Below are positions 1,838-22,004 of a DNA stretch of 32,000 nt, one piece after another. The position numbers and the translations under genes are program-made. The notes under the pieces are model-generated. The model saw only the letters and a list, made by a program, of their open reading frames with translations. It was not told where the DNA came from and ran no database searches. Position 1 is the first letter of the stretch; every line of letters begins with the position of its first letter. This DNA is from Kineococcus radiotolerans SRS30216 = ATCC BAA-149 (GTDB lineage Bacteria > Actinomycetota > Actinomycetes > Actinomycetales > Kineococcaceae): positions 2,010,001 through 2,042,000 of the forward strand of contig NC_009664.2 in the NCBI RefSeq assembly GCF_000017305.1. The letters are read 5' to 3'.

Positions 1838-1843
1838 CACCCG

Positions 1844-1878: not shown

Positions 1879-1950
1879 TCTTCCCGGGTGACCGGGTAGT
1901 TCACCCAGAGCACGCCGGACCCACCGTCAGTCCTCGGAGGACGTCCTTCC

Positions 1951-3803: not shown

Positions 3804-3853
3804 CCGACGGCCCCCCCTCCCCCGCAGACCCCGACCGCACCGGAGCCCCACCC

Positions 3854-5347: not shown

Positions 5348-5394
5348 ACGCTCCCGCCGCCGGCCCCGGAGGGGGACGGCGGCGGGAGCCTACG

Positions 5395-6681: not shown

Positions 6682-6712
6682 GCCGGAGGGCGACCGGCCG
6701 GACGGCGACCCG

Positions 6713-7639: not shown

Positions 7640-7643
7640 GGTC

Positions 7644-9005
7644 TCAGGCCTTCACGAGGGGCGCGACGTCGGTCTCGTAGGACCGCTGGATCTCGTCCTG
7701 CGCGGTCCCCCAGGCCTCGGCCGACGGGGCCCCCTGCAGCATGACCTTCTCCCAGGCGGTGACCGTGGACTGGTCGCCGCCGGGGACGAAGACCCGGGCG
7801 TTGTCCTGCTTGCGCACGTTCGCGAGCTGGTCCACGGCCGTCTTGAACAGCGGGGTCTGCGCGTAGACCTCCTGCATGGGGCCGGAGTCCACCGCCCCGG
7901 TGGTGACGGGCATGTAGCCGGTGTTCTGGGAGAAGTAGGCGGTGTTGTCGTCCTCGGCGAGGAACTTCAGGAAGGTCGCCGCGGCGAGCTGCTGCTCCGG
8001 GGACCGCTTGGTCGGGACCGCGAAGCCGGCGCCGCCGGTGGGGGTGAACCGGCCCGCGGGCCCGCCGGGCAGGAACGCGTTGCCGACGTCGAAGGCCGCG
8101 CCGGCGAGGATGCCGGACAGCGACCCGGTGGACCCGATGACCGACGAGTACAGCCCCGCGCCGAAGTCCGAGGCCTGGTCGGAGGAGGACACCGCGGCCC
8201 ACCCCCGGGTGATGAAGGAGCGCAGGTAGTCGCTGGCCTCCAGCACCTCCGGGCTGTCGACGGTCATCGTCCAGTCCTCGCTCAGCGCACCGCCCCGGCC
8301 CCAGATCAGGTTCTGGTGGATCCAGCTGGCGTTGCCGGTGCCCTTGCCGAGGCCGTACGGGGCCTGCGCCCCGGTGCCCGCGGCCTGCAGCTTCGGCAGC
8401 CACTGCTCGAACTCCGACCAGGTCTCCGGGCCGCGGTCGGGCAGCCCGGCGGCGGCCCAGTGAGCCTTGTTGTAGTAGAACACCGGCGTGGAGCGGCAGT
8501 AGGGCACCGCCCACTGCTGGTCGTCGTACTGGTAGTCGGCGAGGAGACCCGGCTGGTAGTTGCCGACGTCGACCCCCGCCGCGGGCAGCAGGTCGCCCAG
8601 CGGGGCGAGCTGGCCGTTGAGGGCGTAGCGGAACCACCAGACGTCGCTGAGCAGGACCAGGTCGGGCAGGTCCGACCCGGTGAGGGCGGCCTGGAACTTC
8701 TGCGAGATCTCGTCGTAGTTCGCGCCGGCGGTGACGAACTCGACCGTGATGTCGGGGTTGGTCTTCGCGAACCGGGCGAGGAACTCCTCCTCGACGGCCT
8801 GGGACTTGCCCGGGTGGTTCGTCCACACCGTGACGGTGTCGGCCGGGGTGACCCCGCTCCAGTCGGTCTTCGCCTGCTCCGCACCGCCGGTCTCGCCGGC
8901 GGTGGTCGAGGGGCCCGAGCAGGCGGCGAGGCCGAGGCCGACCGCTCCGGCTCCGGCCAGGGCGAGGACACCGCGCCGGGGCAGCGGGGAGGACGAGGTG
9001 ATCAC
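7644..9005 (-). CDS. ABC transporter substrate-binding lipoprotein (CUT1 family, UgpB-like by context)
   Basis: This frame belongs to ORF 7644-9776, but the real start is GTG at 9005, preceded by GGAGAAACC. The N-terminus VITSSSPLPRRGVLALAGAGAVGLGLAACSG has a signal peptide plus lipobox. The glycerophosphodiester assignment rests on operon linkage to the GDPD gene. Confidence 0.75.
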   Translation of the reverse strand: MITSSSPLPRRGVLALAGAGAVGLGLAACSGPSTTAGETGGAEQAKTDWSGVTPADTVTVWTNHPGKSQAVEEEFLARFAKTNPDITVEFVTAGANYDEISQKFQAALTGSDLPDLVLLSDVWWFRYALNGQLAPLGDLLPAAGVDVGNYQPGLLADYQYDDQQWAVPYCRSTPVFYYNKAHWAAAGLPDRGPETWSEFEQWLPKLQAAGTGAQAPYGLGKGTGNASWIHQNLIWGRGGALSEDWTMTVDSPEVLEASDYLRSFITRGWAAVSSSDQASDFGAGLYSSVIGSTGSLSGILAGAAFDVGNAFLPGGPAGRFTPTGGAGFAVPTKRSPEQQLAAATFLKFLAEDDNTAYFSQNTGYMPVTTGAVDSGPMQEVYAQTPLFKTAVDQLANVRKQDNARVFVPGGDQSTVTAWEKVMLQGAPSAEAWGTAQDEIQRSYETDVAPLVKA

Positions 9006-9028
9006 GGTTTCTCCTGGGTGGTCGGGGA

Positions 9029-9934
9029 TCAGTTCGCGAGCGCGCCCGCGGCCAGACCGGCCACGAGGCGACGCTGGAAGAAGACGAAGACGAGCAGGAT
9101 CGGGAGCATGACGAGCACGGTGCCGGCCATGAGGACGCCCCAGTTGGTGATGCCGTCGTTGTTCTGCAGCAGGGTGAGGCCCACCGGCAGGGTCATCATG
9201 TCCGCGTCGTCGGTCACCAGCAGCGGCCACAGGTACTGGTTCCACTCGCTGACGACCGAGACGAGCGCCACGGCCGAGACGGTCGGCGCGGACAGCGGCA
9301 CGACGAACTGCCAGAGCCGCCGCCAGTGGCCGGCGCCGTCCAGCGTGGCGGCCTCCAGGACGGAGACGGGGAAGGTCAGGAAGTGCTGCCGGAACAGGAA
9401 CGTCCCCAGCGAGCTGGCCAGGCCGGGCAGGATGATCCCCTGGTAGGAGTTCAGCCAGCCCAGCTGCGCGGTGAGGGTGTAGTTGGGGATGAGCGTGACC
9501 TGCGGCGGCACCATGAGCGCGGCGAGCACGAGGAGGAACACGAACCGCTTGCCGGGGAACTCCACGAACACCAGGGCGTAGGCGCACATGAGGCCCAGCA
9601 CGACCTTGAAGCCCGCGCCCAGCACCGTGGTGACGAGGCTGTTGAGCAGGAAGTGCGCGAAGGGGACGGTCGCGAAGACGTCGGCGTAGTTCGGCCAGTG
9701 CAGCGCCTCGGGCAGCCACCGCGTCGGGATCGTGTAGATCTCGTCGCGCTGCTTGAACGAGGCCAGCAGCATCCACAGCAGGGGCACGACCATGACGAGG
9801 CCGGCCACGACGAGGCAGGCGTACCCGACGACGTCGACGCGGCGGCGGGGCTCTCCCGCCGGGGGTCGCGCGCCGCGCGGGGCGGGGACGCGGCCCGCAC
9901 CGCCGGGGGCCTTGCGGGGGGCGTCGACGCTCAC
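9029..9934 (-). CDS. ABC transporter permease (UgpE/MalG-like)
   Basis: This is the C-terminal 301 codons of the ORF 9029-10453 frame. GTG 9934 overlaps the upstream stop (GTGA). The translation runs VVGYACLVVAGLVMVVPLLWMLLASFK...LEAATLDGAGHWRRLWQFVVPLSAP (EAA loop). Confidence 0.85.
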   Translation of the reverse strand: MSVDAPRKAPGGAGRVPAPRGARPPAGEPRRRVDVVGYACLVVAGLVMVVPLLWMLLASFKQRDEIYTIPTRWLPEALHWPNYADVFATVPFAHFLLNSLVTTVLGAGFKVVLGLMCAYALVFVEFPGKRFVFLLVLAALMVPPQVTLIPNYTLTAQLGWLNSYQGIILPGLASSLGTFLFRQHFLTFPVSVLEAATLDGAGHWRRLWQFVVPLSAPTVSAVALVSVVSEWNQYLWPLLVTDDADMMTLPVGLTLLQNNDGITNWGVLMAGTVLVMLPILLVFVFFQRRLVAGLAAGALAN

Positions 9935-10851
9935 CGGTAGTGCACCTTCCGCTCGATGAACACCATCTGGACCAGGGTGACCGCCAGCAGCCCGAGGAAC
10001 AGCAGGGTGGCGATGGCGGAGGCGTAGCCGGCGGAACCGTCGACGAACGCCTCCTGGTAGACCTGGTAGACCATCGTGGTGGTGCCCTCCAGCGGGCCGC
10101 CCTTGGTCATCGCGCGGATGATGTCGAAGGACCCGCCCGAGTTCGACTCGATGAACACCGTGACGCTGAGGAACAGCGTGGTGGGCGACAGCAGCGGGAA
10201 CACGATGGACCAGAAGGTGCGCAGCGGGGAGGCCCCGTCGATCTGCGCGGCCTCCAGGAGGTCGCCGGGGACGGACTGGAGCGCGGCGAGGTAGATGATC
10301 GCGACGTACCCGACGTACTTCCAGAGGTACACGATGCAGACCATGGCCAGGGCCCAGTCCGGGTCGTTGTACCAGTTGGGCGAGGTGAGGCCGAGACCGC
10401 GCAGCAGGCCCGAGACCAGCCCGTACTGCGGGTCGAAGACGAAGAGCCAGCACATGCCGACCGCGACCCCGGAGAGCACGTAGGGCGCGAACACCGCGGC
10501 CCGCACGAACGTCCGGCCGCGCAGCTCCCGGTCCAGCAGCCGGGCCAGGGCCAGGCCGATGGCCATGCAGCCCCCCACGGTGACGACGGCGAAGACGAGC
10601 GTCGTCAGCAGCACGGCGGGGGTCTTGGGGTCGCTGAAGTAGTTCCGGTAGTTCTCCAGGCCGATGGCCGTCGCCGTGTCCGACCCGAGGTTCCAGTGCA
10701 GCAGCGAGTACTGCACGTTCTGGATCAGCGGCTTGTAGACGAACAGGACCAGGAGCGCGACGTTGGGCCCGGCGAGGAGCAGGAAGGTCCCCCAGGAGCG
10801 CCAGGGCGTGGTGCGCGGGCGCGCGGCGGGGACCCGGTGGAGGGTCGTCAA
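9931..10851 (-). CDS. ABC transporter permease (UgpA/MalF-like)
   Basis: This is the ORF 9931-10944 frame. I prefer the TTG at 10851 because GAGGAGG lies 5 nt upstream. The translation is LTTLHRVPAARPRTTPWRSWGTFLLLAGPNVALLVLFVYKPL...LLEAAQIDGASPLRTFWSIVFPLLSP. Confidence 0.8.
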   Translation of the reverse strand: MTTLHRVPAARPRTTPWRSWGTFLLLAGPNVALLVLFVYKPLIQNVQYSLLHWNLGSDTATAIGLENYRNYFSDPKTPAVLLTTLVFAVVTVGGCMAIGLALARLLDRELRGRTFVRAAVFAPYVLSGVAVGMCWLFVFDPQYGLVSGLLRGLGLTSPNWYNDPDWALAMVCIVYLWKYVGYVAIIYLAALQSVPGDLLEAAQIDGASPLRTFWSIVFPLLSPTTLFLSVTVFIESNSGGSFDIIRAMTKGGPLEGTTTMVYQVYQEAFVDGSAGYASAIATLLFLGLLAVTLVQMVFIERKVHYR

Positions 10852-10945
10852 GGCGACCTCCTCGCAGGAAGGAGTGAGCTGGACGTCAGGAACAGTAGTT
10901 CGCCGTCCGGCCCCTCCCAGGCCCTCGCGCCCGCCCGGGGGCAAC

Positions 10946-11009
10946 GGTCACCGAGTGTTCACCCGGTGACGCCCGGGGGCTCGCCCAGGTCACCCGGAGT
11001 TCACCGCTG
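10946..11009 (+). promoter_or_regulatory. Two pairs of tandem 11-nt direct repeats matching the PhoP PHO-box unit G(G/T)TCAYYYR(G/C)G, upstream of the Ugp-like operon
   Basis: Read directly: GGTCACCGAGT (10946-10956), GTTCACCCGGT (10957-10967), a 20-nt spacer, GGTCACCCGGA (10988-10998), GTTCACCGCTG (10999-11009). They match the consensus at 9, 10, 10 and 8 of 11 positions by my count. The pair-to-pair offset is 42 nt, about four helical turns. They sit 95-158 nt upstream of the operon start at 10851, and the last unit overlaps the nei stop codon. Confidence 0.55.
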
Positions 11010-11822
11010 GCAGTGCGGGCACCACCAGGTGCGGCGCTGCTCGGGGTCGCCGGGCACCTCGGCCCGGACGAGGATCGTCGTCCCGCACCGCCGGCACGGC
11101 TGCCCCGCGCGCCCCGACACCCAGTGCTGGTGACCCGGGCGGGTGTCCCCCGTGGTCACCTGCATCGCCCCGGACGGGCTCACCGAGAACGCCAGGAGCT
11201 TCACGGCCAGGCGGACGAGGGGTTCCAGCGGCACCTGCCCCACCGGGGTCCAGGGGTCGTGGCCGCGCAGGTAGCACAGCTCGTCGGCCCACAGGTTGCC
11301 CAGGCCGGCGAGGTTCCGCTGGTCCAGCAGCGCCGCCTTGAGCCCGCGCTCGGGGCGGCGGCGGAGGTTCGCCACCGCGGCGCGCACGCGCTCGTCCACG
11401 GGGGTGGTGGCGTCGAGGAGGTCCGGGCCCAGGTGCCCCACCACCGTCGCCTCCTCCGCGGTGGGGACGACCTCCACCACCGGCATCCGCAGGGCGACCG
11501 CGGTGGGGCCGTCGGTGCGCAGCAGCACCCGCACGTCGGGTTCGAGGTGGCGCGGCAGCCGCTTGCCGGGCGCGAGGACGGACCACTGCCCGTCCATCCG
11601 CAGGTGGGTGTGCAGGGTCGCGGGGCCCGGCAGCGAACTGCCCTCGACGTCGAGGCGGGTCAGCAGGTGCTTGCCCCGCGAGACCGTCTCGCGCACCCGC
11701 GCCCCGGAGAGGTCCAGCGTCGCGAACCGCGGCACCCGCAGGTCGGCCGCGCGCAGCACCCGACCGGACAGGCCGGCGTCGAGCCTGCGCGCCAGCCGGT
11801 ACACGGTGTCTCCCTCGGGCAC
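11001..11822 (-). CDS. nei: Fpg/Nei-family DNA glycosylase/AP lyase (endonuclease VIII-like)
   Basis: Within ORF 11001-12032. The start is GTG 11822, giving (M)PEGDTVYRLARRL, the obligatory N-terminal Pro-Glu of the family. An H2TH region DQRNLAGLGNLWADELCY is present. The C-terminal zinc finger is CRRCGTTILVRAEVPGDPEQRRTWWCPHCQR. Confidence 0.85.
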   Translation of the reverse strand: MPEGDTVYRLARRLDAGLSGRVLRAADLRVPRFATLDLSGARVRETVSRGKHLLTRLDVEGSSLPGPATLHTHLRMDGQWSVLAPGKRLPRHLEPDVRVLLRTDGPTAVALRMPVVEVVPTAEEATVVGHLGPDLLDATTPVDERVRAAVANLRRRPERGLKAALLDQRNLAGLGNLWADELCYLRGHDPWTPVGQVPLEPLVRLAVKLLAFSVSPSGAMQVTTGDTRPGHQHWVSGRAGQPCRRCGTTILVRAEVPGDPEQRRTWWCPHCQR

Positions 11823-11932
11823 CCGCCCACCCTGCCCCCCGCCGCCGGTGCGCGCGCGGCGGGGCGATCGTCCCCGAGGGTTCGCCGGACGTTCCCCGGC
11901 CCGTCGCCCACCGCCGCCTAGCGTCGGGCCCC

Positions 11933-12979
11933 GTGAGAAGAACCCTGGCCTCCGCCGTCGTCCTCGCCGCCGCCTGCACCCTCGCCGCGTCCGGGGTCGC
12001 CGCGAGCGCCGCCCCCGCCGGCACCGCCTCACCGGCGACCGCCCGCTGCAGCGGCGCCGTCGCGCTGACGGGCTTCTCCGACCACCTCGACGAGACGGTC
12101 TTCGAGGGCCGGGCCGTGGCGAACCTGTCCGCGCTGGCCCCGCGGGCGGACGGTTCCCTGCTGGCGCTCTCGGACCGGTCGGAGCTGTTCACCCTGGACC
12201 GCGAGCGGGAACCGGCGGCCGCGGTGACCCTGCGGGACGAGGCCGGCGCCGAGCTCGACAGCGAGGGGCTGGTGGTCGACCGCGACGGGACCGTCTGGGT
12301 GTCCTCCGAGCTCGACCCCTCGGTCCGGCACCACGGCACCGACGGGGCGCTGCTGGGTTCCCTGCCCCTGCCCGACGCCCTGCGGACCGCTCCGGCGGGA
12401 CGCGCCCGGGAGAACCTGTCGCTGGAGGGGCTGACCCTCTCCGCCGACGGCCTGACGCTGTTCTCGAACGTCGAGGAGGAACTGCTCGGGGACGCCGACG
12501 GGGTCCTGCGGATCCAGACCTGGCAGCGCCCCGACCCGTCCTCGCCCTTCGCGCTCGGGGTCCAGCACGCCTACCGGGCCGACCCCGGCCTCGGGGTCCC
12601 CGAGCTGCTCGCCACCCCCGACGGGCGCCTCCTCGTCGTGGAACGCGGGTTCACCGCCCAGGTCGGCAACACCGTGCGGCTGTACGTGGCCGACCCGGCG
12701 GCGGGGTCCGACGTCGGGGCCGTGGAGCACCTGGCGGAGGACGCCCCGGTGCTGCCCAAGACGCTGCTGGCCGACCTGGTGACCTGTCCGACGCTGGGCG
12801 CGGTGGCCGAGCAGGCGCAGCTGAACCCGCTGCTCGACAACGTCGAGGGCGCGGCGGTGCTGTCGGCGCAGGGGGACCGGCGGCTGCGGGTGCTGCTGGT
12901 GAGCGACGACAACGAGCGCCCGACCCAGACCACGCGGTTCTACGACCTGGACGTGACGCTGCCGGTGCGGGGGACCTGA
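11933..12979 (+). CDS. Secreted phytase-like esterase family protein (beta-propeller-like)
   Basis: GTG 11933. The signal peptide is MRRTLASAVVLAAACTLAASGVAASA. Segments such as ENLSLEGLTLSADGLTLFSNVEEEL, LLVVERGF and DNVEGAAVL...LLVSDDN resemble the esterase-like activity of phytase family as I remember it. The assignment is by motif recall only. Confidence 0.6.
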   Translation: MRRTLASAVVLAAACTLAASGVAASAAPAGTASPATARCSGAVALTGFSDHLDETVFEGRAVANLSALAPRADGSLLALSDRSELFTLDREREPAAAVTLRDEAGAELDSEGLVVDRDGTVWVSSELDPSVRHHGTDGALLGSLPLPDALRTAPAGRARENLSLEGLTLSADGLTLFSNVEEELLGDADGVLRIQTWQRPDPSSPFALGVQHAYRADPGLGVPELLATPDGRLLVVERGFTAQVGNTVRLYVADPAAGSDVGAVEHLAEDAPVLPKTLLADLVTCPTLGAVAEQAQLNPLLDNVEGAAVLSAQGDRRLRVLLVSDDNERPTQTTRFYDLDVTLPVRGT

Positions 12980-13056
12980 CCCACCGCGACGCCCCGCCCC
13001 GAGGCCCCGCCGCGACGCCCCGCCGCCGGGGGAGGCGGACGTGCTGGACTGGGGCG

Positions 13057-14271
13057 GTGGAGCACTCGCACCAGCACGCCGCGGAACCCCCGGCCCCGCT
13101 GCCGCGCCGCACGCGCGACGTCCTGACCGCCGTCGTCCTCGCGGTGCTCGTGGTGGCCGCCGCGGGCATCGTCGCGACCTGGCCCCGCGACGTCCCCTCG
13201 GCCTCGACGGGGTACGTGGGCGCCCAGACCGTGCGCGGGGAGGTGACGGGGACGCGGATGCACACCTGCCGCGCGGAGCTCGCGGAGGAGCGGCTGCCGG
13301 ACGGCACGATGCCGGAGACGGTGCAGTGCCCGGACGCCACCGTCGCCGTCGACGGCGCGGGCATTGTCACCGTGCCCGTCCCGGCCGCGGTGTTCCACGG
13401 CGGCCTCGGCCCGGGCGACCGGGTCGCGCTGACCCGCTACCCCGCCGAGGCCGGGGCCGCGGAGGCCTACGTGTGGGAGGACTTCGACCGCCGCCTCCCG
13501 CTGGCGGTCGTCCTCGTCGTGTTCGTGCTGTTCACGGTGCTCGTCGGGCGGCGGCGGGGGGTGGCCGCCCTCGTCGGGCTCGGGCTGGGCGGGGCGGCCA
13601 TCGCGTTCCACGTCGTGCCGGCGCTGCTGACCGAGCAGAACGCGGTCGTCGTGGGGCTGAGCTCCTCGACGGCGGTGATGGGGGTGGTGATCTACCTGAC
13701 CCACGGGCTGTCCGCGCGCACGACGGTGGCCTACCTGGGGACGGTCGCGGGGTTGCTCGTCACCGCGGTCGCCGCCGTCCTCGCCGTGGACGGCAGCCAC
13801 CTGGCGGGGCTGGACGACGAGAGCTCCTACACGGTCACGGTCCTCACCGGCGCCGTGGACCTGCGCGGGGTCGTCCTGGCCGGGACCCTCGTCGCGGCCC
13901 TGGGCCTGCTGAACGACGTCACCATCACCCAGGCCGCGGCGGTGTGGGAGGTCCGCGCCGCGGCCCCGCACGCGGGGTTCCGCGACCTGTTCGCGGCGGG
14001 CATGCGGGTGGGGCGGGACCACCTGGCCTCGACCGTCTACACCGTGACGTTCGCCTACGCGGGAGCCGCGCTGCCGACGCTGCTGCTGGTGCGCCTCTAC
14101 GACCAGCCCGCGGGGCAGCTGCTGAACTCCTCCGCGATCGCGGAGGAGCTCGTCCGCTCCGCGGTGGGGGGGATCGCGCTGGCCGTCACGGTGCCGGTGA
14201 CGACGGCCCTGGCGGCCGCGCTGGTGGCCCGGTCCCCGGTGGCGCCGGGGGCGGGGGAGGTCACCCGGTGA
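13057..14271 (+). CDS. YibE/F-family integral membrane protein
   Basis: This is the C-terminal part of the artefactual 991-aa ORF 11296-14271. GTG 13057 is the first plausible start. The architecture is one TM (VLTAVVLAVLVVAAAGIVATW), an extracytoplasmic segment of about 100 aa, then about 6 TM spans containing LNDVTITQAAAVWE and DHLASTVYTVTFAYAGAALP, as in YibE/F proteins. The start is uncertain. Confidence 0.65.
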   Translation: MEHSHQHAAEPPAPLPRRTRDVLTAVVLAVLVVAAAGIVATWPRDVPSASTGYVGAQTVRGEVTGTRMHTCRAELAEERLPDGTMPETVQCPDATVAVDGAGIVTVPVPAAVFHGGLGPGDRVALTRYPAEAGAAEAYVWEDFDRRLPLAVVLVVFVLFTVLVGRRRGVAALVGLGLGGAAIAFHVVPALLTEQNAVVVGLSSSTAVMGVVIYLTHGLSARTTVAYLGTVAGLLVTAVAAVLAVDGSHLAGLDDESSYTVTVLTGAVDLRGVVLAGTLVAALGLLNDVTITQAAAVWEVRAAAPHAGFRDLFAAGMRVGRDHLASTVYTVTFAYAGAALPTLLLVRLYDQPAGQLLNSSAIAEELVRSAVGGIALAVTVPVTTALAAALVARSPVAPGAGEVTR

Positions 14272-15496
14272 GGGGGCGGGCCGGCCGCCGCGAGGCCAGC
14301 GCCAGGCCGGCCGCGGAGGCCAGCAGCAGCGCCGTCAGCAGCAGCCACGGCAGCCCCGCGCCGGGTTCCAGCAGCGCCCCCACCGCGGTGGAGCCCAGCA
14401 GGACGGCCAGCCCGCCGCCGGAGGCCAGCGCCCCGTAGTGGGCCCCGACGTACCGCTCCCCCGCCAGCGGCGGGACGAGGTCGCGGGCCACCGGGCCGGC
14501 CAGCGCCGAGCCCAGGTGCAGCACCACGACGAAGGCCGCCGCGGGAGCGAGCGCCGGCACCCACCCGGGGGCCGGCGCGAAGGTGGCCGCCGCGACGAGG
14601 CCGAAGGCCAGCGCGGACACCGCGAACCCCAGGGGCAGGGCCGTGGCGGCGCCGCGGCGCCGGGCCCAGCGCGCCAGCGGGACCTGCGCGGTGACGGTGA
14701 CGACCGCGGCGAGGACGAACATCAGCCCGAGGGCGTCCTGGGAACCGGTGGCCCGTTCCAGTTCCACCGGCAGGGCCAGGTACATCTGGTTGTAGGCCAG
14801 CAGCAGCGTCGAGTACAGGGCCGCGAAGAGCAGGAACCGCCGGTTGCGCAGGACGGCGGACCACCCCGCGCTCACCGACGTCTCCCGCACCGTGCCGTGG
14901 TCGCGCGGGGCCCACCGCGCGTTGAGCACGAGGACGAGCCCGAAGATCCCCGCGGCGACGAGGCACGTCGTGCGGAACTCCACCGCCAGCAGGACCGCGC
15001 CCAGGACGGGGCCGACCAGGGAGCCCACCTTGCCGACGACGTCGTCGAGGGCGAACAGCTCCGCGCGGGTGATGCCGCCGCCGTCCTCGAGCCGCCGCCC
15101 CTCGTGGGCGAGGCCGGTCTCGACCGCGGGGGAGAACAGGGCCGCGGCGAAACCCGTGAGGACGGTCCCGGCCAGCACCCCCGGCAGCGACGTCGTTGCG
15201 GCCAGGGTGCAGAACCCGGCGATGCGGACCAGGCAGCCGGTGAGCAGGACGGGCCGGACGCCGAACCGGTCGGTGAGCGCCCCCCCGACGAGGAACAGGC
15301 CCTGCTGGCTGAACGTCCGGACCCCCAGGACGATCCCCACGACCCAGCCCGCCAGCCCGAGGCCGGAGGACAGGTGCGCGGCGAGGAAGGGCACGACGAG
15401 GTAGAACCCGACGTTGAACGCCAGCTGGCTCAGCAGGAACAACCGGACGGGCGGTGGCAGGGTGCGCACCGCGCGGAGCTTCGGGCGGGTGGGCAC
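14261..15496 (-). CDS. MFS transporter (12-TMS type), last gene of the metal operon
   Basis: This is the C-terminal 411 codons of ORF 14261-17161. GTG 15496 lies 11 nt after the ATPase stop. The translation is VPTRPKLRAVRTLPPPVRLFLLSQLAFNVGFYLVVPFLAAHL...GALTDRFGVRPVLL (MFS motif-A-like G-x-L-x-D-R-x-G-x-R). The substrate is unknown. The 3' end overlaps the convergent YibE/F gene by 11 nt. Confidence 0.8.
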   Translation of the reverse strand: MPTRPKLRAVRTLPPPVRLFLLSQLAFNVGFYLVVPFLAAHLSSGLGLAGWVVGIVLGVRTFSQQGLFLVGGALTDRFGVRPVLLTGCLVRIAGFCTLAATTSLPGVLAGTVLTGFAAALFSPAVETGLAHEGRRLEDGGGITRAELFALDDVVGKVGSLVGPVLGAVLLAVEFRTTCLVAAGIFGLVLVLNARWAPRDHGTVRETSVSAGWSAVLRNRRFLLFAALYSTLLLAYNQMYLALPVELERATGSQDALGLMFVLAAVVTVTAQVPLARWARRRGAATALPLGFAVSALAFGLVAAATFAPAPGWVPALAPAAAFVVVLHLGSALAGPVARDLVPPLAGERYVGAHYGALASGGGLAVLLGSTAVGALLEPGAGLPWLLLTALLLASAAGLALASRRPARPLTG

Positions 15497-15507
15497 GGCG
15501 GGGAACC

Positions 15508-17712
15508 CTACGCGGCGCCGCCCCCGGCCGGGGACGGGCGGCGCTCGCGCGCCCGCGGGGGGATCCGGTAGCGGATCAGGCGGGCGGAGTTCACGGCGAC
15601 GAACACCGACGAGGCGTTGTGCGCGATCGCGGCCAGCACCGGCGACAGCGCCCCCGCCGCCCCCAGCGCGAGGCCGAAGCCGTTGACCGCGATGGACGCG
15701 CCGTAGTTCTGCTTGATGAGGCCGAGGGTCCGGTCGCCGAGGTCGCGCAGCTGCAGCAGGCGCCGCAGGTCGTCGCCGACGAGCGCGACGTCGGCGGTCT
15801 CCACCGCGACGTCGGTGCCCGACATCCCCATGGCGATGCCGAGGTCGGCCAGCGCCAGGGCGGGCGCGTCGTTGGTGCCGTCCCCGACGACCGCGACGGT
15901 GTACCCCTCGGCCTGCAGCAGCCGCACGACGTCCTGCTTGTCCTCGGGCATGACCTCGGAGCGGAACTCCTCGATGCCCAGTTCGGCGGCGACGGCCGCG
16001 GCGGTCCCGGGGTTGTCGCCGGTGAGCATGACGATCCGCTGGACCCCGCTGGCGCGCAACGCGTCCAGGACCTCCCGGGCCTCCGGGCGCACCTCGTCGC
16101 GCAGGCTGACCAGACCGGTCAGCACCCCGTCGACGGCCAGCAGCAGCGGCGTCTCGGCGGCCCGCTGCAGCTCCTCGACCCACCCGCGGGCGTGGTCGTC
16201 GACCGCCACCCCCTCGGCGTCCATGAGGGCGGCGCTGCCGACCAGCAGGACCCGGCCGTTGGCCTGGACCCGCATCCCCAGCCCCAGCAGGACCTCGCAC
16301 TCCTCGTGGGTGGGGATGAGCAGGCGGCGTTCCTCGGTGGAGCGGATGACGGCCTGGGCCAGCGGGTGCTTGGAGTGGACCTCGGAGTTCGCGGCCTCGG
16401 ACAGCACCTGCTCGGGGGTCCAGTCGTCGCGGAAGGACAGCACGTTCGTCACGACGGGACGGCCCACGGTGAGGGTCCCGGTCTTGTCGAAGACGAACGC
16501 GTCGACGCGCCCGGCGGCCTCCAGGTGCGAACCGCCCTTGACGAGGATGCCGCGCCGCGCGCCGTTGCCGATGGCGGCGCTGATGGCCGTGGGCGTGGCC
16601 AGGCCGACCGCGCAGGGGCAGGCGATGAGCAGCATCGTCATGGCCCGGCGCACGTCGCGGGTCAGCACGAGCGTCGCCAGCGCCAGCCCGAAGGAGGCGG
16701 GGACGAACTTGCGGCTGAACGCGTCGCCGACGGTCTGCACCGGCGCGCGGTCGGCCTGGGCGTCCTCGACGCGGGCGATGATCCGGCCCACCGCGGTGTC
16801 CTGGCCGGTGGCGGTGGCGCGCACCACGAGGCGGCCGCGCAGGTTCACGCTGCCGGCCAGCACGGGGTCGCCGGCGGTGCGCTGGACGGGGAGGTTCTCC
16901 CCCGTCAGCGCGGCCTGGTCCACGACGGCCTCGCCCTCGACGACCTCGCCGTCGACGGGGACGGTGGACTGCTCGAACACGACGACGAGGTCGCCGACGT
17001 GCAGCTCGGCGAGGTCGACCTGCTGCTCGACGACCGACCCGTCGGCGGCGGTGCGGCGGACCCAGGCGTGGGTCTCGCTGCCGGTGAGCAGGTCCGCGAT
17101 CGCGCGCCGGGTGCGGCGCAGGGTGAGGTCCTGCAGGTACTCCCCGATGTTCAGCAGCCACAGCACGGTGAGGGCGACGACGTTCTCGCGCAGCAGCAGG
17201 CTCGCCACCGTCGCGGCCGAGACCAGGGCGTCGGTGCCGGCGCTGCGGCGGCCGAGGAGCGAGCCGACCGCCCCCTTGAGGAAGGGGTAGCCGGAGAAGA
17301 TCGTGACGCCGGTGGCGATGAGGCGGGATGTCGGCCCGAGCAGCGGCGGGCGCCCGAAGGCGTAGCGGCGCAGCCCGAGCAGGGCCAGCGCGGCCCCGCC
17401 GACGGCGATGCGGGCGACCTCGCCGTTGCCGACGTCGGCCGAGCGCGGGGTGCGGGAGGGGGCGGCGTCGGCGGGGACGGCGGCGCTGGAGGCGACCGCC
17501 GCGGTGAGCTCCTCCACGCCGAGGGCGTCGGGGTCGAAGTGCACGACGACCCCGCCCGTCACCGGGTAGGCGCGGGCGAGGCGGACCCCGTCGAGGCGGT
17601 CCAGCGCCTCCTCCGCCGCGACCGCGCGCCCGGGGCTGCGGCGCAGCCAGTCCGCCTGGAAGCGGGCCCGCCCGGCGGTGACCGAGACGACGTTCAGCGG
17701 GGAGAGCAGCAC
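15508..17712 (-). CDS. Heavy-metal-translocating P1B-type ATPase, CtpC-like
   Basis: 734 aa with actuator LTGENLPV, TM CPC motif LLIACPCAVGLATP, phosphorylation site DKTGTLT, hinge GDGTNDAPAL and terminal TM motif HNASSVFVAVNSARL. The N-terminal ferredoxin-like HMA-type segment (VSVTAGRARFQADWLRRSPGRAVAAEEALDRLDGVRLARAYPVTGGVVVHFDP) has no CxxC. A DUF1490/PacL-like gene precedes it, as for mycobacterial CtpC/CtpG/CtpV. Metal specificity cannot be decided from sequence. Confidence 0.9.
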   Translation of the reverse strand: MLLSPLNVVSVTAGRARFQADWLRRSPGRAVAAEEALDRLDGVRLARAYPVTGGVVVHFDPDALGVEELTAAVASSAAVPADAAPSRTPRSADVGNGEVARIAVGGAALALLGLRRYAFGRPPLLGPTSRLIATGVTIFSGYPFLKGAVGSLLGRRSAGTDALVSAATVASLLLRENVVALTVLWLLNIGEYLQDLTLRRTRRAIADLLTGSETHAWVRRTAADGSVVEQQVDLAELHVGDLVVVFEQSTVPVDGEVVEGEAVVDQAALTGENLPVQRTAGDPVLAGSVNLRGRLVVRATATGQDTAVGRIIARVEDAQADRAPVQTVGDAFSRKFVPASFGLALATLVLTRDVRRAMTMLLIACPCAVGLATPTAISAAIGNGARRGILVKGGSHLEAAGRVDAFVFDKTGTLTVGRPVVTNVLSFRDDWTPEQVLSEAANSEVHSKHPLAQAVIRSTEERRLLIPTHEECEVLLGLGMRVQANGRVLLVGSAALMDAEGVAVDDHARGWVEELQRAAETPLLLAVDGVLTGLVSLRDEVRPEAREVLDALRASGVQRIVMLTGDNPGTAAAVAAELGIEEFRSEVMPEDKQDVVRLLQAEGYTVAVVGDGTNDAPALALADLGIAMGMSGTDVAVETADVALVGDDLRRLLQLRDLGDRTLGLIKQNYGASIAVNGFGLALGAAGALSPVLAAIAHNASSVFVAVNSARLIRYRIPPRARERRPSPAGGGAA

Positions 17713-17716
17713 GGGC

Positions 17717-18025
17717 TCAGTGCTCGTGGTCGTGCCCGGCCTGCGGGGTCGGCGGCACCGGCACCTGCTCGCCGAGCTCGTCGTAGGCCTGCGCGACGAT
17801 GTCGCCGGTGCCCAGCCGCAGCCGCTCGACGCCGGTCTCGGCGGCGCGGGAGGCCTTGATGCCGGCCTTGGCGCCGTTCACGGCGAGGCGGCGCAGGGCG
17901 TTGCCCCCGCGGCCGTCGCCGAGGGCCTTGACGATGCCGGCCGAGGCGACGGCGGTGAGGGCGAGGCGCCCGAGGGGGGCGGCGATGGGCAGCACGAGGG
18001 ACCTCCTGGTACGACGGGGGTTCAT
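17717..18025 (-). CDS. PacL/DUF1490-like small membrane protein (P-ATPase-associated metal chaperone-like), C-terminal His/Asp/Glu motif
   Basis: This is the ORF 17717-18076 frame. ATG 18025 overlaps the upstream stop (ATGA). The translation is MNPRRTRRSLVLPIAAPLGRLALTAVASAGIVKALG...GDIVAQAYDELGEQVPVPPTPQAGHDHEH-stop. It has one N-terminal hydrophobic helix, an Ala/Lys-rich helical middle and a terminal HDHEH. It ends 4 nt upstream of the P1B ATPase. Confidence 0.7.
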   Translation of the reverse strand: MNPRRTRRSLVLPIAAPLGRLALTAVASAGIVKALGDGRGGNALRRLAVNGAKAGIKASRAAETGVERLRLGTGDIVAQAYDELGEQVPVPPTPQAGHDHEH

Positions 18026-19116
18026 TCCACCACGAGGGGCGCGGCGGACGCGTGGCCGCTGCGCGGTCCCAGCCACGCCTCGAACCCGTCCTCCCCCGGG
18101 TCGCCGTGGCCGGCGGCCTCCTCGTCCGGGGTGGCGAGGACGTCGGCGAAGGCGCGGCGGACGCGTTCGCGCTCAGCGGGTTCGGTGCCGGTGACGACGA
18201 GGTGGGTGCTGCGCCCGCCCGGCGACCAGGGACCCGTCTCGCCGATGCTGAGCTGCCCGCCGGCGCCGTTCCACGCGCAGACGGTGCCCGGCCGGCTGGT
18301 GAGGCGGAAGGTGCCGCGGGCGCGCAGCCGCCCGGCCCCGAGGTCCTCGACGCGGTCCAGCAGCCGGTCCGGGTGCAGCGTGCCCCGGGAGGTCAGCTCG
18401 ATCGTCCAGACCCCGGAGGTGTCGGGGACCGGGGGGCGACGCACCGTCAGGAGGTCGGCGCGCGCCCCGGTGCACCGGCCCGCGCCGAGGGGGGCGAGCA
18501 CCTGCGCGCCGTCGGCGCCCTCCAGCTCCAGCACGGGGACCGCGGGCCCGCACAGGTGGGCCAGCAGGGTCCGGGCGCGGTCGTCGGCGGTCCCGGCGGC
18601 CAGGACGAGGTCGGCCTCGTCGAGCTGCCCGGCCAGGGCCTCGCCGACGGCGCGCTCGTCGTCGTCGTGGGTGGCGAGGCCGCGCTCGGAGAGCAGGGCG
18701 TCGCCGAGGAGGTCCTCGACGAGGGTGGCGGCGTCGACGACGGTGACGACGCCGCGCACGGCGACGGCCTCCCGCAGGTCCTCGTCCGCGCACAGGGCCG
18801 CCACCAGCGGGGTGGGGTCGCTCCCGACGGGCGGGACCAGCACGAGGGTGGACCAGCGCCCGCCGGCGGCGATGGCGGCCACGGTGGGCAGGACGTCCTC
18901 GCGCTGGGCGCAGCCGGCGCAGGCGTGCTCGAGGGGGACGACGACGTCCTCGACCACGCCGCCGAAGTCGCTGACGACGCGCCGCAGGCCGTCGGGGGTG
19001 AGGTCGTAGCGCAGGACGGCGGCGCCGGGGACGTCGCAGAACACCGTGCCGGTGGCCAGGTCGCGCTGGAGCGGGTGGACCGAGGTCAGGACGGTGATCG
19101 GCAGGACGGGGGACAC
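18022..19116 (-). CDS. COG0523 (CobW/G3E GTPase)-derived protein lacking a Walker A P-loop, with CobW_C-like C-terminal domain
   Basis: This is the C-terminal 364 codons of ORF 18022-19833. GTG 19116 lies 5 nt after GGAGG; in-frame GTGs at 19122 and 19128 are alternatives. It is colinear with the COG0523 layout. PITVLTSVHPLQRD replaces PVTVLTGFLGAGKTT. EHACAGCAQREDVLP replaces the GCICC-type metal motif. LVLVPPVGSDPTPL replaces IETTGLADP. VVTVVDAATL and QLDEADLVLAAG are conserved-like. The C-terminal VWTIELTSRGTLHPDRLLDRVEDLG...STHLVVTG is CobW_C-like. Confidence 0.65.
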   Translation of the reverse strand: MSPVLPITVLTSVHPLQRDLATGTVFCDVPGAAVLRYDLTPDGLRRVVSDFGGVVEDVVVPLEHACAGCAQREDVLPTVAAIAAGGRWSTLVLVPPVGSDPTPLVAALCADEDLREAVAVRGVVTVVDAATLVEDLLGDALLSERGLATHDDDERAVGEALAGQLDEADLVLAAGTADDRARTLLAHLCGPAVPVLELEGADGAQVLAPLGAGRCTGARADLLTVRRPPVPDTSGVWTIELTSRGTLHPDRLLDRVEDLGAGRLRARGTFRLTSRPGTVCAWNGAGGQLSIGETGPWSPGGRSTHLVVTGTEPAERERVRRAFADVLATPDEEAAGHGDPGEDGFEAWLGPRSGHASAAPLVVE

Positions 19117-19129
19117 GGACACCTCCACA

Positions 19130-19144
19130 TGAGAACGATTCTCG
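19130..19144. promoter_or_regulatory. Zur-box-like palindrome TGAGAACGATTCTCG (core GAGAA-CGA-TTCTC perfect) between the COG0523-like operon and the divergent orphan ORF
   Basis: Read directly. It lies 14 nt upstream of the GTG at 19116 and downstream of a minus-strand TAACGT -10-like hexamer. It is adjacent to a plus-strand TAGGGT -10-like hexamer (19147-19152). It matches 10 of 15 positions of the actinobacterial Zur core TGAAAATCATTTTCA as I remember it, and resembles the second box at 19818-19832. Confidence 0.5.
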
Positions 19145-19185
19145 TCTAGGGTGACGTTAGCAGTCCCCCGACCCCTGGAGGAGCC

Positions 19186-19563
19186 GTGCCCCGCCCCGCC
19201 CCCGCCCCGTCCCCGTCCCGGGGCTGGGTGCTCGTCCCCGCGAGCGAACCCGGTCTGCTGCACCGGGCGCGGCACGTCGTGCGCCGCTCGCGCGACCTCG
19301 TCCTCGTGGCGCTGGACCCCGGGGCGACGGCCCCCGCCCACGCCTGCCTGGGCGTCGGCGTGGAGTTCGCCCGGTCCGCCCCGCGGCCGGGGCGGCTGGT
19401 GTGGCTGCGCGACCTCACCGCCACCGAGACCGCCGCGGCGCTGGAGTGGATCGGCGGACCCCTGGCGGGTCTGGGCGACCCGCCCGCCGCGCTGCGCCAC
19501 CGGGTCGCGGCGACGCAGCCGGCGGGGGTCCACTCGCGAGCGGGGGGTCAGCCGCGCGCGTAG
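19186..19563 (+). CDS. Hypothetical protein (125 aa), no recognisable domain
   Basis: GTG 19186 follows GGAGGAG (19177-19183). Reading the codons myself, about 119 of 125 third positions are G/C, which is the coding signature of this genome, whereas the overlapping alternative frames are Arg/Pro-rich junk. The translation is [96 protein letters not shown]... The 3' end overlaps the convergent rpmE2 by 16 nt. Confidence 0.5.
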
Positions 19564-19802
19564 CGGCGCCGGAACTTCTCCACGCGCCCCTCGGTGTCCA
19601 GGACCCGGGCGTTGCCGGTCCAGAACGGGTGGCTGGCCGCCGAGACGTCGACGTCGAACACCGGGTAGGTGGCGCCGTCCTCCCACTCCAGGGTCGGCAG
19701 GTCGCGGCGCGCCGCGAGGGTCGAGTTGGACAGGAACGCGGTGCCCGCGGCCTTGTCGCGGAAGACGACGGGGCCGTAGGCGGGGTGCAGGTCCGGTTTC
19801 AC
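19548..19802 (-). CDS. rpmE2: 50S ribosomal protein L31 type B (cysteine-less, zinc-independent paralogue)
   Basis: [84 protein letters not shown]. This is the typical type-B L31 (KxxxHP...HPFxTG, no CxxC). GTG 19802 follows AGGAGGA. Confidence 0.92.
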
Positions 19803-19817
19803 GATTCCTCCTGTAGA

Positions 19818-19832
19818 TGAGATACGTTCTCA
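19818..19832. promoter_or_regulatory. Zur-box-like palindrome TGAGATACGTTCTCA (TGAGA-N5-TCTCA) in the 74-bp divergent rpmE2 / rpmB promoter region
   Basis: Read directly; the 5-nt arms are exact reverse complements. It lies 16 nt from the rpmE2 start and 45 nt from the L28 start. It is the only AT-enriched stretch in the region. It matches 10 of 15 positions of the remembered Zur core. C- ribosomal paralogue operons are classic Zur targets. Confidence 0.55.
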
Positions 19833-19876
19833 ATAGTACGACCCACCCGTCCGTCCGTCACGACCAGGGAGGACAC

Positions 19877-20113
19877 GTGTCCGCTCGCTGCCAGGTCACC
19901 GGGGCCGTCCCGGGCTTCGGCAAGTCCGTCTCGCACTCGCACCGGCGCACCAACCGCCGCTTCGACCCCAACGTCCAGCGCAAGAGGTGGTTCGTCCCCT
20001 CCCTGGGGCGCACCGTGACGCTGACCGTCTCCGCGCGCGGCATCAAGACCGTCGACGAGCGCGGCATCGAATCCGTGATCGCGGACCTGCGGGCCCGCGG
20101 GGAGAGGTTCTGA
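19877..20113 (+). CDS. rpmB: 50S ribosomal protein L28 (paralogue lacking the Cys zinc ribbon)
   Basis: GTG 19877 follows GGGAGGA. The translation is [78 protein letters not shown]. The L28 signature is present with only one Cys. Confidence 0.9.
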
Positions 20114-20280
20114 TGGCGAAGTCCCAGGACGTCCGCCCCGTCATCAAGCTCCGCTCCACCGGGGGCACCGGGTACACCTACGTCACCCGCAAGAACCGCC
20201 GCAACGACCCCGACCGCATGGTCGTCCGCAAGTACGACCCCGTGCTGCGCCGGCACGTCGACTTCCGAGAGGAGCGCTGA
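20113..20280 (+). CDS. rpmG: 50S ribosomal protein L33 (cysteine-less paralogue)
   Basis: ATG 20113 overlaps the L28 stop (TGATG). The translation is [55 protein letters not shown]. The L33 pattern is present with no Cys. Confidence 0.92.
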
Positions 20281-20283
20281 ACC

Positions 20284-20589
20284 GTGGCCAAGAAGAGCAA
20301 GATCGCCAAGAACGAGCAGCGCAAGGAGGTCGTCGCCCACCACGCCGCGCGCCGGGCGGAGCTCAAGCGCACCGCCGTGGCCGTCACCGCCGGCGAGGAG
20401 GAGCGCGCCGCCGCGCGCCTCGCCCTGCAGCGCCTCCCCCGCGACGCCAGCCCGACCCGCGTGCGCAACCGCGACGCCGCCGACGGCCGGCCCCGCGGGA
20501 CGCTGCGGAAGTTCGGCCTTTCCCGCATCCGGGTGCGCGAGATGGCCCACGCCGGGGAACTGCCCGGCGTCACGAAGTCGAGCTGGTGA
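20284..20589 (+). CDS. rpsN: 30S ribosomal protein S14 (long, cysteine-less form)
   Basis: [31 protein letters not shown]...[43 protein letters not shown]. This is the 101-aa long S14 with no CxxC. Confidence 0.92.
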
Positions 20590-20828: not shown

Positions 20829-22004
20829 GTGGTGACGGTGGGACCACGGGGAGCAGGACGCGCACCGGCGCCGGCCGGCGGCCGCGCCGTCCCCGCGCCC
20901 GCCCCGGACCTGGCTTCGCTGCGGGCCAGCGAGGTGTTCACCGTCCTGTGCGCCCCCGGCCTGCTGCTCCTCGCGGTGGCCGTCGTGGTCCTGGTGCCGG
21001 AGTTCCTGCACCCCGGCACGACCGGTGTCGTCCTCGGCGGGGGCGTGCTCGCCCCCCCGGTCGCGGCGTTCGCGATCCTGCGGCAGCGGCGCACCGGGCG
21101 CGCCCAGGGCTGGTGGTCGGTGTGGGCCACCGGCGTCCTCTCCGTCCTCACCCTCACCATCGACGACTCCGCCTTCCGCCAGACGGCGGTGATGGCGCTC
21201 GTCGTGGGCCCCCTCTACGCCGCGATGTTCACCAGCACCCGCTCCATGCTGGGCCACCTGGCCCTCGCCGTGGCCGCCGGTTCCGCCCTCGTCGCCGGGA
21301 TCCCCGGCGACGGCGAGGAACGGGCGATGCGCGTCCTGGCCGTGCAGATGGTGCTGGTGCTCAGCGTCGTCGGGCTGTTCGTCCTGCGCCGCCGCCTCGA
21401 CACCGCGGTCGCGCTGCTGACCCTCGCGCGCGACCGGGCGGACGACCTCGCCGGGCACGACCCCCTCACGGGCCTGCTGAACCGCCGCGGGCTGCGCCTG
21501 GCCCTGGAGGCCGCCGCGGCCGGCGGGAGGGGACTCGGCCCCACCGGCGCGGTCCTCCTCGACGTCGACCACTTCAAGACGGTGAACGACACCCTCGGCC
21601 ACGACGCCGGCGACGCCGTGCTGATCCGGATCGCGGCCGTCCTCGCCGCCACCGCGCGACCCACCGACCTCGTCGCCCGCATCGGGGGCGAGGAGTTCCT
21701 CGTCGTCGCCACCGCCACCGAACCCGGGGACGTCGCCCGCCTCGGGGAACGGCTGCGGGCCGCCGTCGTGGCCGACGGCGGCCGGCCACCGGTCACCGTC
21801 AGCGCCGGCGTGGCCTCCTGCCCGCCGGAACCGGGGGTGCCGTGCCTCGTGGACGAGCTGCAGTCCCGCGCCGACCGGCTGCTCTACCGGGCCAAGAGCA
21901 CCGGCCGCAACCGCGTCTGCGTCGAGGAACCCGGGGAGGTGACCCCCGCGGACCCCGCCCGGGCGGGTGCACCGGCCCCCCGCCTCCCGGGCCGGTCCGG
22001 CTGA
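20829..22004 (+). CDS. Membrane-anchored diguanylate cyclase (GGDEF domain, GGEEF active site with RxxD I-site)
   Basis: The N-terminal half is hydrophobic (about 5-6 TM). The C-terminal part reads HDPLTGLLNRRGL...LLDVDHFKTVNDTLGHDAGDAVL...RPTDLVARIGGEEFLVV...LLYRAKSTGRNRV. RPTD lies 5 residues before GGEEF and forms the I-site. The start (GTG 20829, 20832 or 20838) is uncertain. Confidence 0.85.
   Translation: MVTVGPRGAGRAPAPAGGRAVPAPAPDLASLRASEVFTVLCAPGLLLLAVAVVVLVPEFLHPGTTGVVLGGGVLAPPVAAFAILRQRRTGRAQGWWSVWATGVLSVLTLTIDDSAFRQTAVMALVVGPLYAAMFTSTRSMLGHLALAVAAGSALVAGIPGDGEERAMRVLAVQMVLVLSVVGLFVLRRRLDTAVALLTLARDRADDLAGHDPLTGLLNRRGLRLALEAAAAGGRGLGPTGAVLLDVDHFKTVNDTLGHDAGDAVLIRIAAVLAATARPTDLVARIGGEEFLVVATATEPGDVARLGERLRAAVVADGGRPPVTVSAGVASCPPEPGVPCLVDELQSRADRLLYRAKSTGRNRVCVEEPGEVTPADPARAGAPAPRLPGRSG

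Follow-up and report, generated by a model that had tools for sequence, protein, structure and literature searches.

We have analyzed a window of 32,000 nucleotides of the Kineococcus radiotolerans SRS30216 genome (contig NC_009664.2, positions 2,010,001 to 2,042,000; 74.6% G+C) in which four closely packed minus-strand genes follow a palindrome of the type recognized by the zinc regulator Zur. They code for a COG0523 paralogue, a DUF1490 protein (PacL), a P-type ATPase (CtpC) and a major facilitator superfamily (MFS) transporter. We consider it probable that the region is a zinc-starvation island with two Zur-type operators, in which a gene resembling mrf, for the ribosome hibernation factor-recruiting protein of mycobacteria, has been fused into one operon with pacL-ctpC and the MFS gene is a later passenger. 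A sequence-only reading of the same DNA had suggested that the four genes may be a metal redistribution or metallation module. Its description was good: all four open reading frames (ORFs) were found where it had placed them, with the domains it had named, and the gaps of 4 nt between pacL and ctpC and of 11 nt between ctpC and the MFS gene were exact. The arrangement itself is mostly ordinary and has precedents, being a lineage-specific fusion inside a known kind of Zur island and not a new metal-handling machine. The features are collected in the table.

Features of the Zur-type island in the window (positions are those of the window).
Feature	Position	Strand	Evidence or remark
MFS transporter, distantly MdtH-like	14261..15496	-	MFS_1, 87 bits
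ctpC-type (P1B-6-like) P-type ATPase, 734 aa	15508..17712	-	E1-E2_ATPase and Hydrolase domains
pacL (DUF1490), 92 aa from GTG 17995	17717..17995	-	PF07371, 45 bits (cut-off 28.4)
Candidate relic of the pacL Zur box, TGAACCCCCGTCGTA, 5/10	18010..18024	-	Junction alignment with Kineococcus sp. TBRC 1896
mrf-like gene, COG0523 paralogue without G-domain motifs, 364 aa	18022..19116	-	Pfam, NCBIfam, alignment, AlphaFold2
Putative Zur-type operator 1, TGAGAACGATTCTCG	19130..19144		69-bp divergent promoter region of ORF125 and the mrf-like gene
ORF125, hypothetical, 125 aa	19186..19563	+	GGAGGAG Shine-Dalgarno; divergent from the mrf-like gene
rpmE2, type B L31, no cysteines	19548..19802	-	NCBIfam type B L31, 113.5 bits (cut-off 86)
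Putative Zur-type operator 2, TGAGATACGTTCTCA	19818..19832		Divergent promoter region of rpmE2 and rpmB2-rpmG2-rpsN2
rpmB2-rpmG2-rpsN2, cysteine-less L28, L33 and S14 paralogues	19877..20589	+	Pfam

The palindrome in front of the first gene is real, and it lies 13 nt before the GTG at 19116, not 14 as had been counted. Its sibling, earlier located about 700 bp away in the promoter of the alternative ribosomal protein genes, was found at a distance of 688 bp between rpmE2 and rpmB2. When the window was scanned with TGAGAANNNTTCTCA allowing up to 2 mismatches, these two operators were the only matches in the 32 kb, where 0.07 were expected, and two or more sites appeared in none of 100 shuffles. 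Both fit the actinobacterial Zur consensus TGAnAAnnnTTnTCA, a 7-1-7 AT-rich palindrome, at 9 of the 10 specified positions. Besides, both are flanked by hallmark genes of the regulon, namely the COG0523 paralogue and the genes for type B L31, L28, L33 and S14, four ribosomal proteins that are without CxxC motifs in the window. For comparison we collected 80 genomic loci out of the 267 species genomes that matched the mrf-like protein, and all counts of mrf-like genes over 80 refer to these. A box was called there when at least 9 of the 10 positions of TGANAANNNTTNTCA agreed (operator 1 itself scores 9/10). An equivalent box was present within 160 nt upstream of the mrf-like orthologue in 41/80 loci, and within 700 nt in 69/80, the wider limit taking in loci where rpmE2 precedes the mrf-like gene within one operon. 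The consensus of these boxes, TGAGAAYSRTTCTCA, agrees with the Zur-box sequences tabulated for Mycobacterium smegmatis (Goethe et al., 2020, PMC7174638). This phylogenetic footprinting speaks for the earlier assignment, and the palindrome is very probably a Zur operator. A scan for E. coli-type signals predicted neither terminators nor sigma-70-type promoters inside the four-gene unit on either strand, which from so crude a method is a weak negative in DNA of 75% GC. With a conserved operator and no predicted terminator or promoter between the genes, a pump of the PacL/CtpC type appears to be placed behind a starvation-type operator, as had been noticed before.

The adjacency of the mrf-like gene and pacL is sporadic. 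Over about 85 loci inspected, pacL-ctpC directly followed the mrf-like gene in only 3, those of the window, Kineococcus sp. SYSU DK006 (L001) and K. vitellinus (L002). The pacL and ctpC of the window are intact and 79-91% identical to their orthologues in L001 and L002, and the junction, including the Shine-Dalgarno sequence, is conserved. The arrangement was absent from four other Kineococcus-type loci. In the closest relative found, a metagenomic contig (L087) with a Mrf-like protein 88% identical, the gene is followed by the ABC transporter genes that in the window lie beyond Fpg; in K. rhizosphaerae (L088) by an amino-acid permease gene, and in Kineococcus sp. DK025 (L003) by a convergent ilvD. 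The fourth, Kineococcus sp. TBRC 1896 (L081), keeps the flanks of the window around its pacL-ctpC, with an aldose epimerase gene upstream and Fpg, ABC transporter and GDPD genes downstream, and has no block of GGDEF, alternative ribosomal protein, ORF125 and mrf-like genes at that locus. Among the Kineococcus species examined, no two had the block of alternative ribosomal protein and mrf-like genes in the same surroundings. In a metagenomic Kineococcus-like contig (L089) and in Motilibacter deserti (L025), pacL-ctpC lies beside the alternative ribosomal protein and mrf cluster in other orientations. As to the gap in L087 (8095-10140), everything from pacL through Fpg is missing, and the ABC permease genes that come next are broken up into short ORFs (128, 75 and 186 aa); it may be a deletion scar or a metagenomic assembly error.

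The junction between the two parts carries what is probably a trace of the fusion. The sequence-only reading had described an ATGA overlap at 18022-18025 between the mrf-like gene and a pacL of 102 aa starting at ATG 18025 (ORF 18025..17717). These letters are in the sequence. However, the start at GTG 17995 has an AGGAGG Shine-Dalgarno 7 nt upstream, is the one called in Kineococcus sp. TBRC 1896 and is conserved across the junction alignment, so that the two genes are more probably separated by a 26-nt spacer after the mrf-like stop. The stand-alone pacL of TBRC 1896 has an intact 9/10 box, TGAGAAGCGATCTCA, 13 nt before its GTG start. In the aligned spacer this box decays in grades, from 8/10 in K. 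vitellinus to 7/10 in DK006 and 5/10 in K. radiotolerans, where the first three bases of the relic, in the left arm of the box, are the stop codon of the mrf-like gene. It is probable, judging by this alignment, that the spacer holds a decayed copy of pacL's own Zur box. From the sporadic adjacency, the box before a stand-alone pacL and the graded relic, we infer a lineage-specific fusion of two Zur-controlled units in which a redundant internal operator was lost.

We searched for the same association of Zur and pacL-ctpC elsewhere in a sample of 46 non-identical loci with enough upstream sequence. Five of them were obtained by looking up named CtpC orthologues, and all others by scanning metagenomes with a CtpC-specific motif of transmembrane segments (TM) 5 to 6; Kineococcus sp. 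TBRC 1896 contributes two contigs, thus two copies. In most ctpC loci with enough upstream sequence pacL lies immediately upstream of ctpC. A Zur-like box scoring 9-10/10 was found in the pacL promoter window of 6/46 loci, compared with 0.13 expected from the rate of such boxes inside the ATPase coding sequence. Boxes were present within a few kb of pacL-ctpC in about a dozen further loci. In several unrelated metagenome contigs (L144, L153, L157, L138, L098 and L123), boxes of 9-10/10 are located 2-6 kb downstream of ctpC, which suggests that ctpC often neighbors other Zur-controlled genes. In Modestobacter lacusdianchii (L083), pacL-ctpC is found between an smtB-zur operon and two clusters of the znuABC type. 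The first 14,000 nucleotides of this locus (1-14000) also contain a second P-type ATPase gene after pacL-ctpC, with a DUF1980/ArsP_1 permease pair and the two ZnuA/ABC-3 uptake clusters nearby, and Zur-like boxes at 4845 and 11289. That every pacL-ctpC has a Zur box was considered and rejected, with 6/46 only. The association is recurrent, yet a minority state. The survey of gene neighborhoods that had been proposed with the earlier reading therefore cuts both ways: the strict adjacency is sporadic, which counts against it, while the looser link between Zur and pacL-ctpC recurs.

There is prior evidence of a similar situation in mycobacteria, and the arrangement is thus less novel than the sequence-only reading had supposed. 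In M. smegmatis the orthologues of pacL1-ctpC, MSMEG_6059-6058, are located inside the cluster MSMEG_6045-6071, where znuABC is also found together with Mrf, a second CobW-like gene and alternative ribosomal protein genes (Goethe et al., 2020, PMC7174638). The zinc chelator TPEN induced them 15.2- and 17.6-fold, and in a zur mutant the induction was 13.4- and 9.2-fold (PMC7174638); their deletion left zinc resistance unchanged (Boudehen et al., 2022, PMC9374683). With these data the central surprise of the earlier reading, an efflux-type module under starvation control near COG0523 and alternative ribosomal protein genes, is already on record, although undiscussed as a concept. Zur is not mentioned in the papers on PacL and the effluxosome (PMC9374683, PMC13043812).

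The first gene of the unit had been described as a degenerate COG0523 protein. Its Pfam match to CobW_C (PF07683; 3.6e-14, 52.8 bits) and its predicted fold agree with this, the cobW match being partial (profile positions 54-150 only), but its identity would rather be Mrf-like. The Walker A motif GxxGxGK[ST], the CxCC, the switch II and the NKxD-type motifs are all degenerate. In the family alignment the P-loop is missing in every member, its place being occupied in the window protein by VLTSVHPLQRDL. The CxCC is replaced family-wide by an invariant LEHxCxxCxxRE, which in the window reads EHACAGCA and provides a putative zinc site (H64-x-C66-x-x-C69) between the switch I and switch II positions. 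The best NCBIfam match was NF047431, 'ribosome hibernation factor-recruiting GTPase MRF', with 101.8 bits versus 73.3 for ZigA. MRF was also the top match for 10 further family members (83-271 bits), taken from the results of a profile search over 1.8 billion representatives, and the intermediate members, at 250-271 bits, are likewise devoid of the P-loop and have the HxCxxC. Genes for L28, L33, S14 or L31 were found within 2.5 kb of the mrf-like gene in 62/80 loci. The AlphaFold2 model (mean predicted local distance difference test, pLDDT, 88.4) had YjiA as its best match in the PDB (E=1e-13), indicating that the two-domain G3E/CobW fold is retained; YjiA was also the only match in a profile search of the PDB (E=1e-3), and a single-sequence search of the PDB gave none. 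As all the GTPase motifs are degenerate, GTP-driven metal transfer is unlikely.

Likeness to Mrf was judged from the NCBIfam scores as a proxy and from published residue positions; mycobacterial Mrf was not among the top matches of the family searches and none was found in the PDB. Mrf (MSMEG_6069, the orthologue of Rv0106) has no G-domain signature, and H62, C64 and C67 are among its zinc ligands; its gene belongs to the Zur-controlled C- ribosomal operon, and the protein recruits the hibernation factor Mpy to 30S subunits (Li et al., 2018 and 2020, PMC6094098 and PMC7431043). We name the first gene Mrf-like because MRF is its best match, the HxCxxC is present, the P-loop is not, and alternative ribosomal protein genes are, as far as the gene order indicates, its constant partners. 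A longer version of this ORF reaching to TTG 19833 (603 aa; GenBank ABS01778.1, 'cobalamin synthesis CobW domain protein', 18022-19833) was rejected as over-extended, since it crosses the operator and, in a frame other than theirs, ORF125 and rpmE2, and since RefSeq and all orthologues begin near 19116; the later RefSeq models have 364-368 aa. The family is characterized by the motif WxG[AS]GGQLS[IV] and was found in 267 species-level genomes, of the genera Kineococcus, Cellulomonas, Nocardioides, Actinotalea, Quadrisphaera, Motilibacter, Luteococcus, Aeromicrobium, Jonesia and Georgenia among others. It nearly always adjoins alternative ribosomal protein genes and goes in the databases under the names 'GTP-binding protein' or 'CobW'. 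Control of the Mrf type may not be specific to mycobacteria.

The ATPase has the motifs CPC at residue 365, DKTGT at 409 and HNASS at 698. No cysteine is present in its N-terminal ~300 residues, and the HMA_2 match is weak (24.7 bits, cut-off 30). It scored 548 bits with TIGR01525 and is 69-91% identical to proteins named cation-transporting ATPase C by their sources, from Kineococcus, Quadrisphaera, Modestobacter, Nocardioides, Rhodococcus and Pseudonocardia. CPC in TM4 and H-N-x-(S/T) in TM6, the features that define the class (PMC9374683, PMC13460109), are both present; between the VN and HN motifs we counted 20 residues versus the published N-X18 spacing. CtpC would thus belong to the P1B-6-like class of metal-exporting ATPases, with transport predicted. 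The G+C content at its third codon positions (GC3) is 0.98, typical of a live gene. PacL has an N-terminal hydrophobic stretch, LPIAAPLGRLALTAVASAGIV, as read from the sequence, and at the C-terminus a metal-binding motif, GHDHEH, that resembles the DLHDHDH of PacL1 (PMC9374683).

The MFS gene, which had been counted as part of the module, is a different matter. It probably is co-transcribed with ctpC, although no Shine-Dalgarno sequence was visible before its GTG at 15496. The MdtH model NF008650 gave 143 bits, far from its equivalog cut-off of 469, and indicates only general MFS_1 membership. It directly follows ctpC only in K. radiotolerans and not in L001, L002, L081 or L089, and in DK025 an 82% identical orthologue is found across the ribosomal cluster, at a distance of ~5 kb. 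A role as conserved partner was ruled out by this distribution, and the gene would seem to be a species-specific passenger.

The fusion of an mrf-like and a pacL-ctpC unit in a Zur island could work as follows. Operator 2 would serve rpmE2 on one side and rpmB2-rpmG2-rpsN2 on the other, and operator 1 would serve ORF125 and a long minus-strand transcript of the mrf-like gene, pacL, ctpC and the MFS gene. In zinc-replete cells Zn-Zur would occupy both boxes, which overlap the predicted core promoter and 5' leader. On depletion the alternative ribosomal proteins, ORF125, the Mrf-like factor, PacL-CtpC and the MFS transporter would be derepressed together. By homology, the Mrf-like protein would be a zinc-sensing factor that acts on alternative ribosomes by recruiting a hibernation factor, and not a chaperone of the pump. 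Mrf itself is degraded by Clp in its zinc-bound form. In turn pacL-ctpC would be a separate unit, which elsewhere often appears to have its own Zur box or to lie among znu and zur genes. In the lineage of K. radiotolerans, DK006 and K. vitellinus it would have come behind mrf and lost its own box, and the MFS gene would have been added later in one species. To our knowledge, all characterized P1B ATPases pump outwards. The most likely task of PacL-CtpC in zinc-limited cells, speculative as this is, would be outward metal transport at a low rate, either to supply exported proteins with metal or to rid the cell of competing metals (Mn, Cd, Co) let in by derepressed uptake systems. A rate of about one ion per minute is quoted for CtpC from Padilla-Benavides et al. 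(2013) (PMC9374683). Bulk detoxification of zinc seems, equally speculatively, less likely.

Several observations weigh against this explanation. Absence of a Zur-like box from the pacL promoter window in 40/46 loci indicates that Zur control of pacL-ctpC is a minority state, and no box is predicted directly at MSMEG_6059 (PMC7174638), so that control in M. smegmatis could be indirect. In M. tuberculosis pacL1-ctpC is zinc-inducible and not starvation-induced (PMC9374683). The Mrf-like protein is far from reaching the equivalog cut-off of NF047431, 375 bits, and has no equivalents of the Mrf ligands H36, H41 and H81; the family consensus has a His near position 37, where the window protein has a Tyr. 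No zur gene was found within the 32-kb window, the homology of the relic box comes from a short alignment of ~45 bases, and the promoter and terminator scan is of the crude kind already mentioned.

The metal redistribution module put forward by the sequence-only reading, in which a COG0523-like scaffold would pass metal to PacL and from there to the ATPase while the MFS protein exports a metallophore, is in our opinion very unlikely. The genes do stand close together, their co-transcription is very probable, three Kineococcus species have kept the mrf-pacL junction, the COG0523-like protein keeps a His/Cys site and PacL its His-rich C-terminus. However, the adjacency found in 3 of ~85 loci is missing even from the closest relative L087, and the constant partners of the family are alternative ribosomal protein genes (62/80) and not pacL. 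The protein has lost all GTPase motifs and matches MRF best. Besides, in over 46 loci, and in mycobacteria as well (PMC9374683), pacL-ctpC functions as a unit of two genes, and the MFS gene follows only in K. radiotolerans. As judged from these neighborhoods, the chaperone relay appears to be without comparative support.

More can be said for a classical efflux pump, although we still regard it as unlikely. Here pacL-ctpC would serve detoxification, and metal excess would induce it through a promoter lying within the 3' end of the mrf-like gene; or else Zur would repress it in the low-zinc state. Repression of exporter genes by Zur in the low-zinc state has been described in Corynebacterium glutamicum. 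The outward direction of the characterized P1B ATPases and the 40/46 pacL-ctpC loci without a Zur-like box agree with such a pump, as does the fact that M. tuberculosis pacL1-ctpC is needed for zinc resistance and inducible by zinc (PMC9374683). But the spacer from the mrf-like stop to the pacL start measures only 26 nt, and the relic box there has decayed to 5/10. In the window no sensor gene of the ArsR/SmtB, MerR or CsoR families was found, and the operator matches in type and position the one before the alternative ribosomal genes. The M. smegmatis orthologues moreover are induced by TPEN and in the zur mutant, and zinc resistance does not depend on them. Least probable of all, we think, is a juxtaposition without consequence, where too little transcription from the Zur-controlled promoter arrives at ctpC to be of use, the pump being silent or in decay. 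The evolutionary instability of the arrangement would suit it, with pacL through Fpg lost in L087 and the shifting context of the ribosomal and mrf block among Kineococcus species. Yet pacL and ctpC are intact in the window and conserved in L001 and L002, together with the junction and its Shine-Dalgarno, the GC3 of ctpC is typical of a live gene and no terminator was predicted.

The fusion of two Zur units has some implications beyond Kineococcus. It is possible, although we hold this only tentatively and consider it doubtful, that PacL-CtpC modules are recurrent, perhaps ancestral, members of the Zur regulon across Actinomycetota, with a job in zinc limitation being primary in free-living species. 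On this view, the zinc-inducible 'effluxosome' of M. tuberculosis would be the derived state, rewired in adaptation to the host, and hibernation control of the Mrf type would extend far beyond mycobacteria. If so, the function under zinc limitation would be the metallation of exported proteins or the expulsion of competing metals. In any case, the comparison gives support to a point that went unremarked in one transcriptome table of M. smegmatis, that this pump is wired to zinc starvation in several actinobacterial lineages, while it is now described only as a defence against zinc poisoning. The question of what an outward P1B ATPase does when zinc is scarce becomes testable in a non-pathogen. 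There is also a value for annotation, in that P-loop-less Mrf-like COG0523 proteins, partners of alternative ribosomal protein genes in several hundred species of actinobacteria, are now labelled 'GTP-binding protein' or 'CobW'.

Some other genes of the island deserve mention. ORF125 had been overlooked in the earlier reading. It shares with the mrf-like gene the intergenic region that contains operator 1, and its 3' end runs 16 nt into rpmE2. Orthologues in synteny, with 39-85% identity, are present in L001-L003 and L087-L089. A homologue search returned 9 clusters, 4 of them named, all Kineococcus, and 5 from Logan/ENA assemblies; Pfam and NCBIfam scans gave no match. As far as these searches indicate, ORF125 appears to be restricted to Kineococcus and is a candidate new member of the Zur regulon. 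As for rpmB2, its first ATG (19817) falls inside operator 2, and the likelier start is the GTG at 19877, preceded by GGGAGG, giving 78 aa, a length equal to that of the gene called in L087. A gene for a GGDEF diguanylate cyclase adjoins the alternative ribosomal protein cluster both in the window (20829-22004, plus strand) and in L087 (1499-5453), and in L005 and L023, too, GGDEF matches lie near this cluster. Before the GGDEF gene of the window no Zur-like box was found.

The island of M. smegmatis is the closest known counterpart to that of the window. Common to both are cysteine-less ribosomal paralogues, a COG0523 protein of the Mrf type (MSMEG_6069), pacL-ctpC and boxes of the TGAnAAnnnTTnTCA type. 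All these genes of the M. smegmatis cluster are induced by TPEN and by zur deletion. There pacL-ctpC stands by itself, several genes from mrf and with no predicted box of its own, while in the window mrf and pacL-ctpC form one predicted transcription unit. The M. smegmatis island also contains znuABC and a second COG0523 gene, ZigA-like, and the window is devoid of uptake genes. Regarding the first gene product alone, Mrf and the window protein are both COG0523 paralogues without G-domain motifs, with an H-x-C-x-x-C of the same spacing and position, encoded in or beside a Zur-type operon of C- ribosomal proteins; unlike closer relatives of MRF, the window protein has no insertion in the C-terminal domain. 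With the canonical COG0523 metallochaperones (YjiA, ZigA, ZagA/YciC, ZNG1) it shares the G3E/CobW fold, a Cys/His site between the switch I and switch II positions, putative here, and membership, predicted in this case, of the Zur regulon, and it differs from them in its degenerate Walker A, CxCC, switch II and NKxD-type motifs. The pump itself is built like PacL1-CtpC of M. tuberculosis (PMC9374683; EMBO J 2026, PMC13043812). In both, a DUF1490 protein that is hydrophobic in an N-terminal segment and rich in His at the C-terminus is encoded directly upstream of a P1B-6-like ATPase. The ATPase carries CPC in TM4 and HN-x-S in TM6, and its N-terminal domain contains no cysteine. The difference lies in the wiring, as the M. 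tuberculosis operon is inducible by zinc and confers resistance to its excess, and the operon of the window stands behind an operator of the starvation type.

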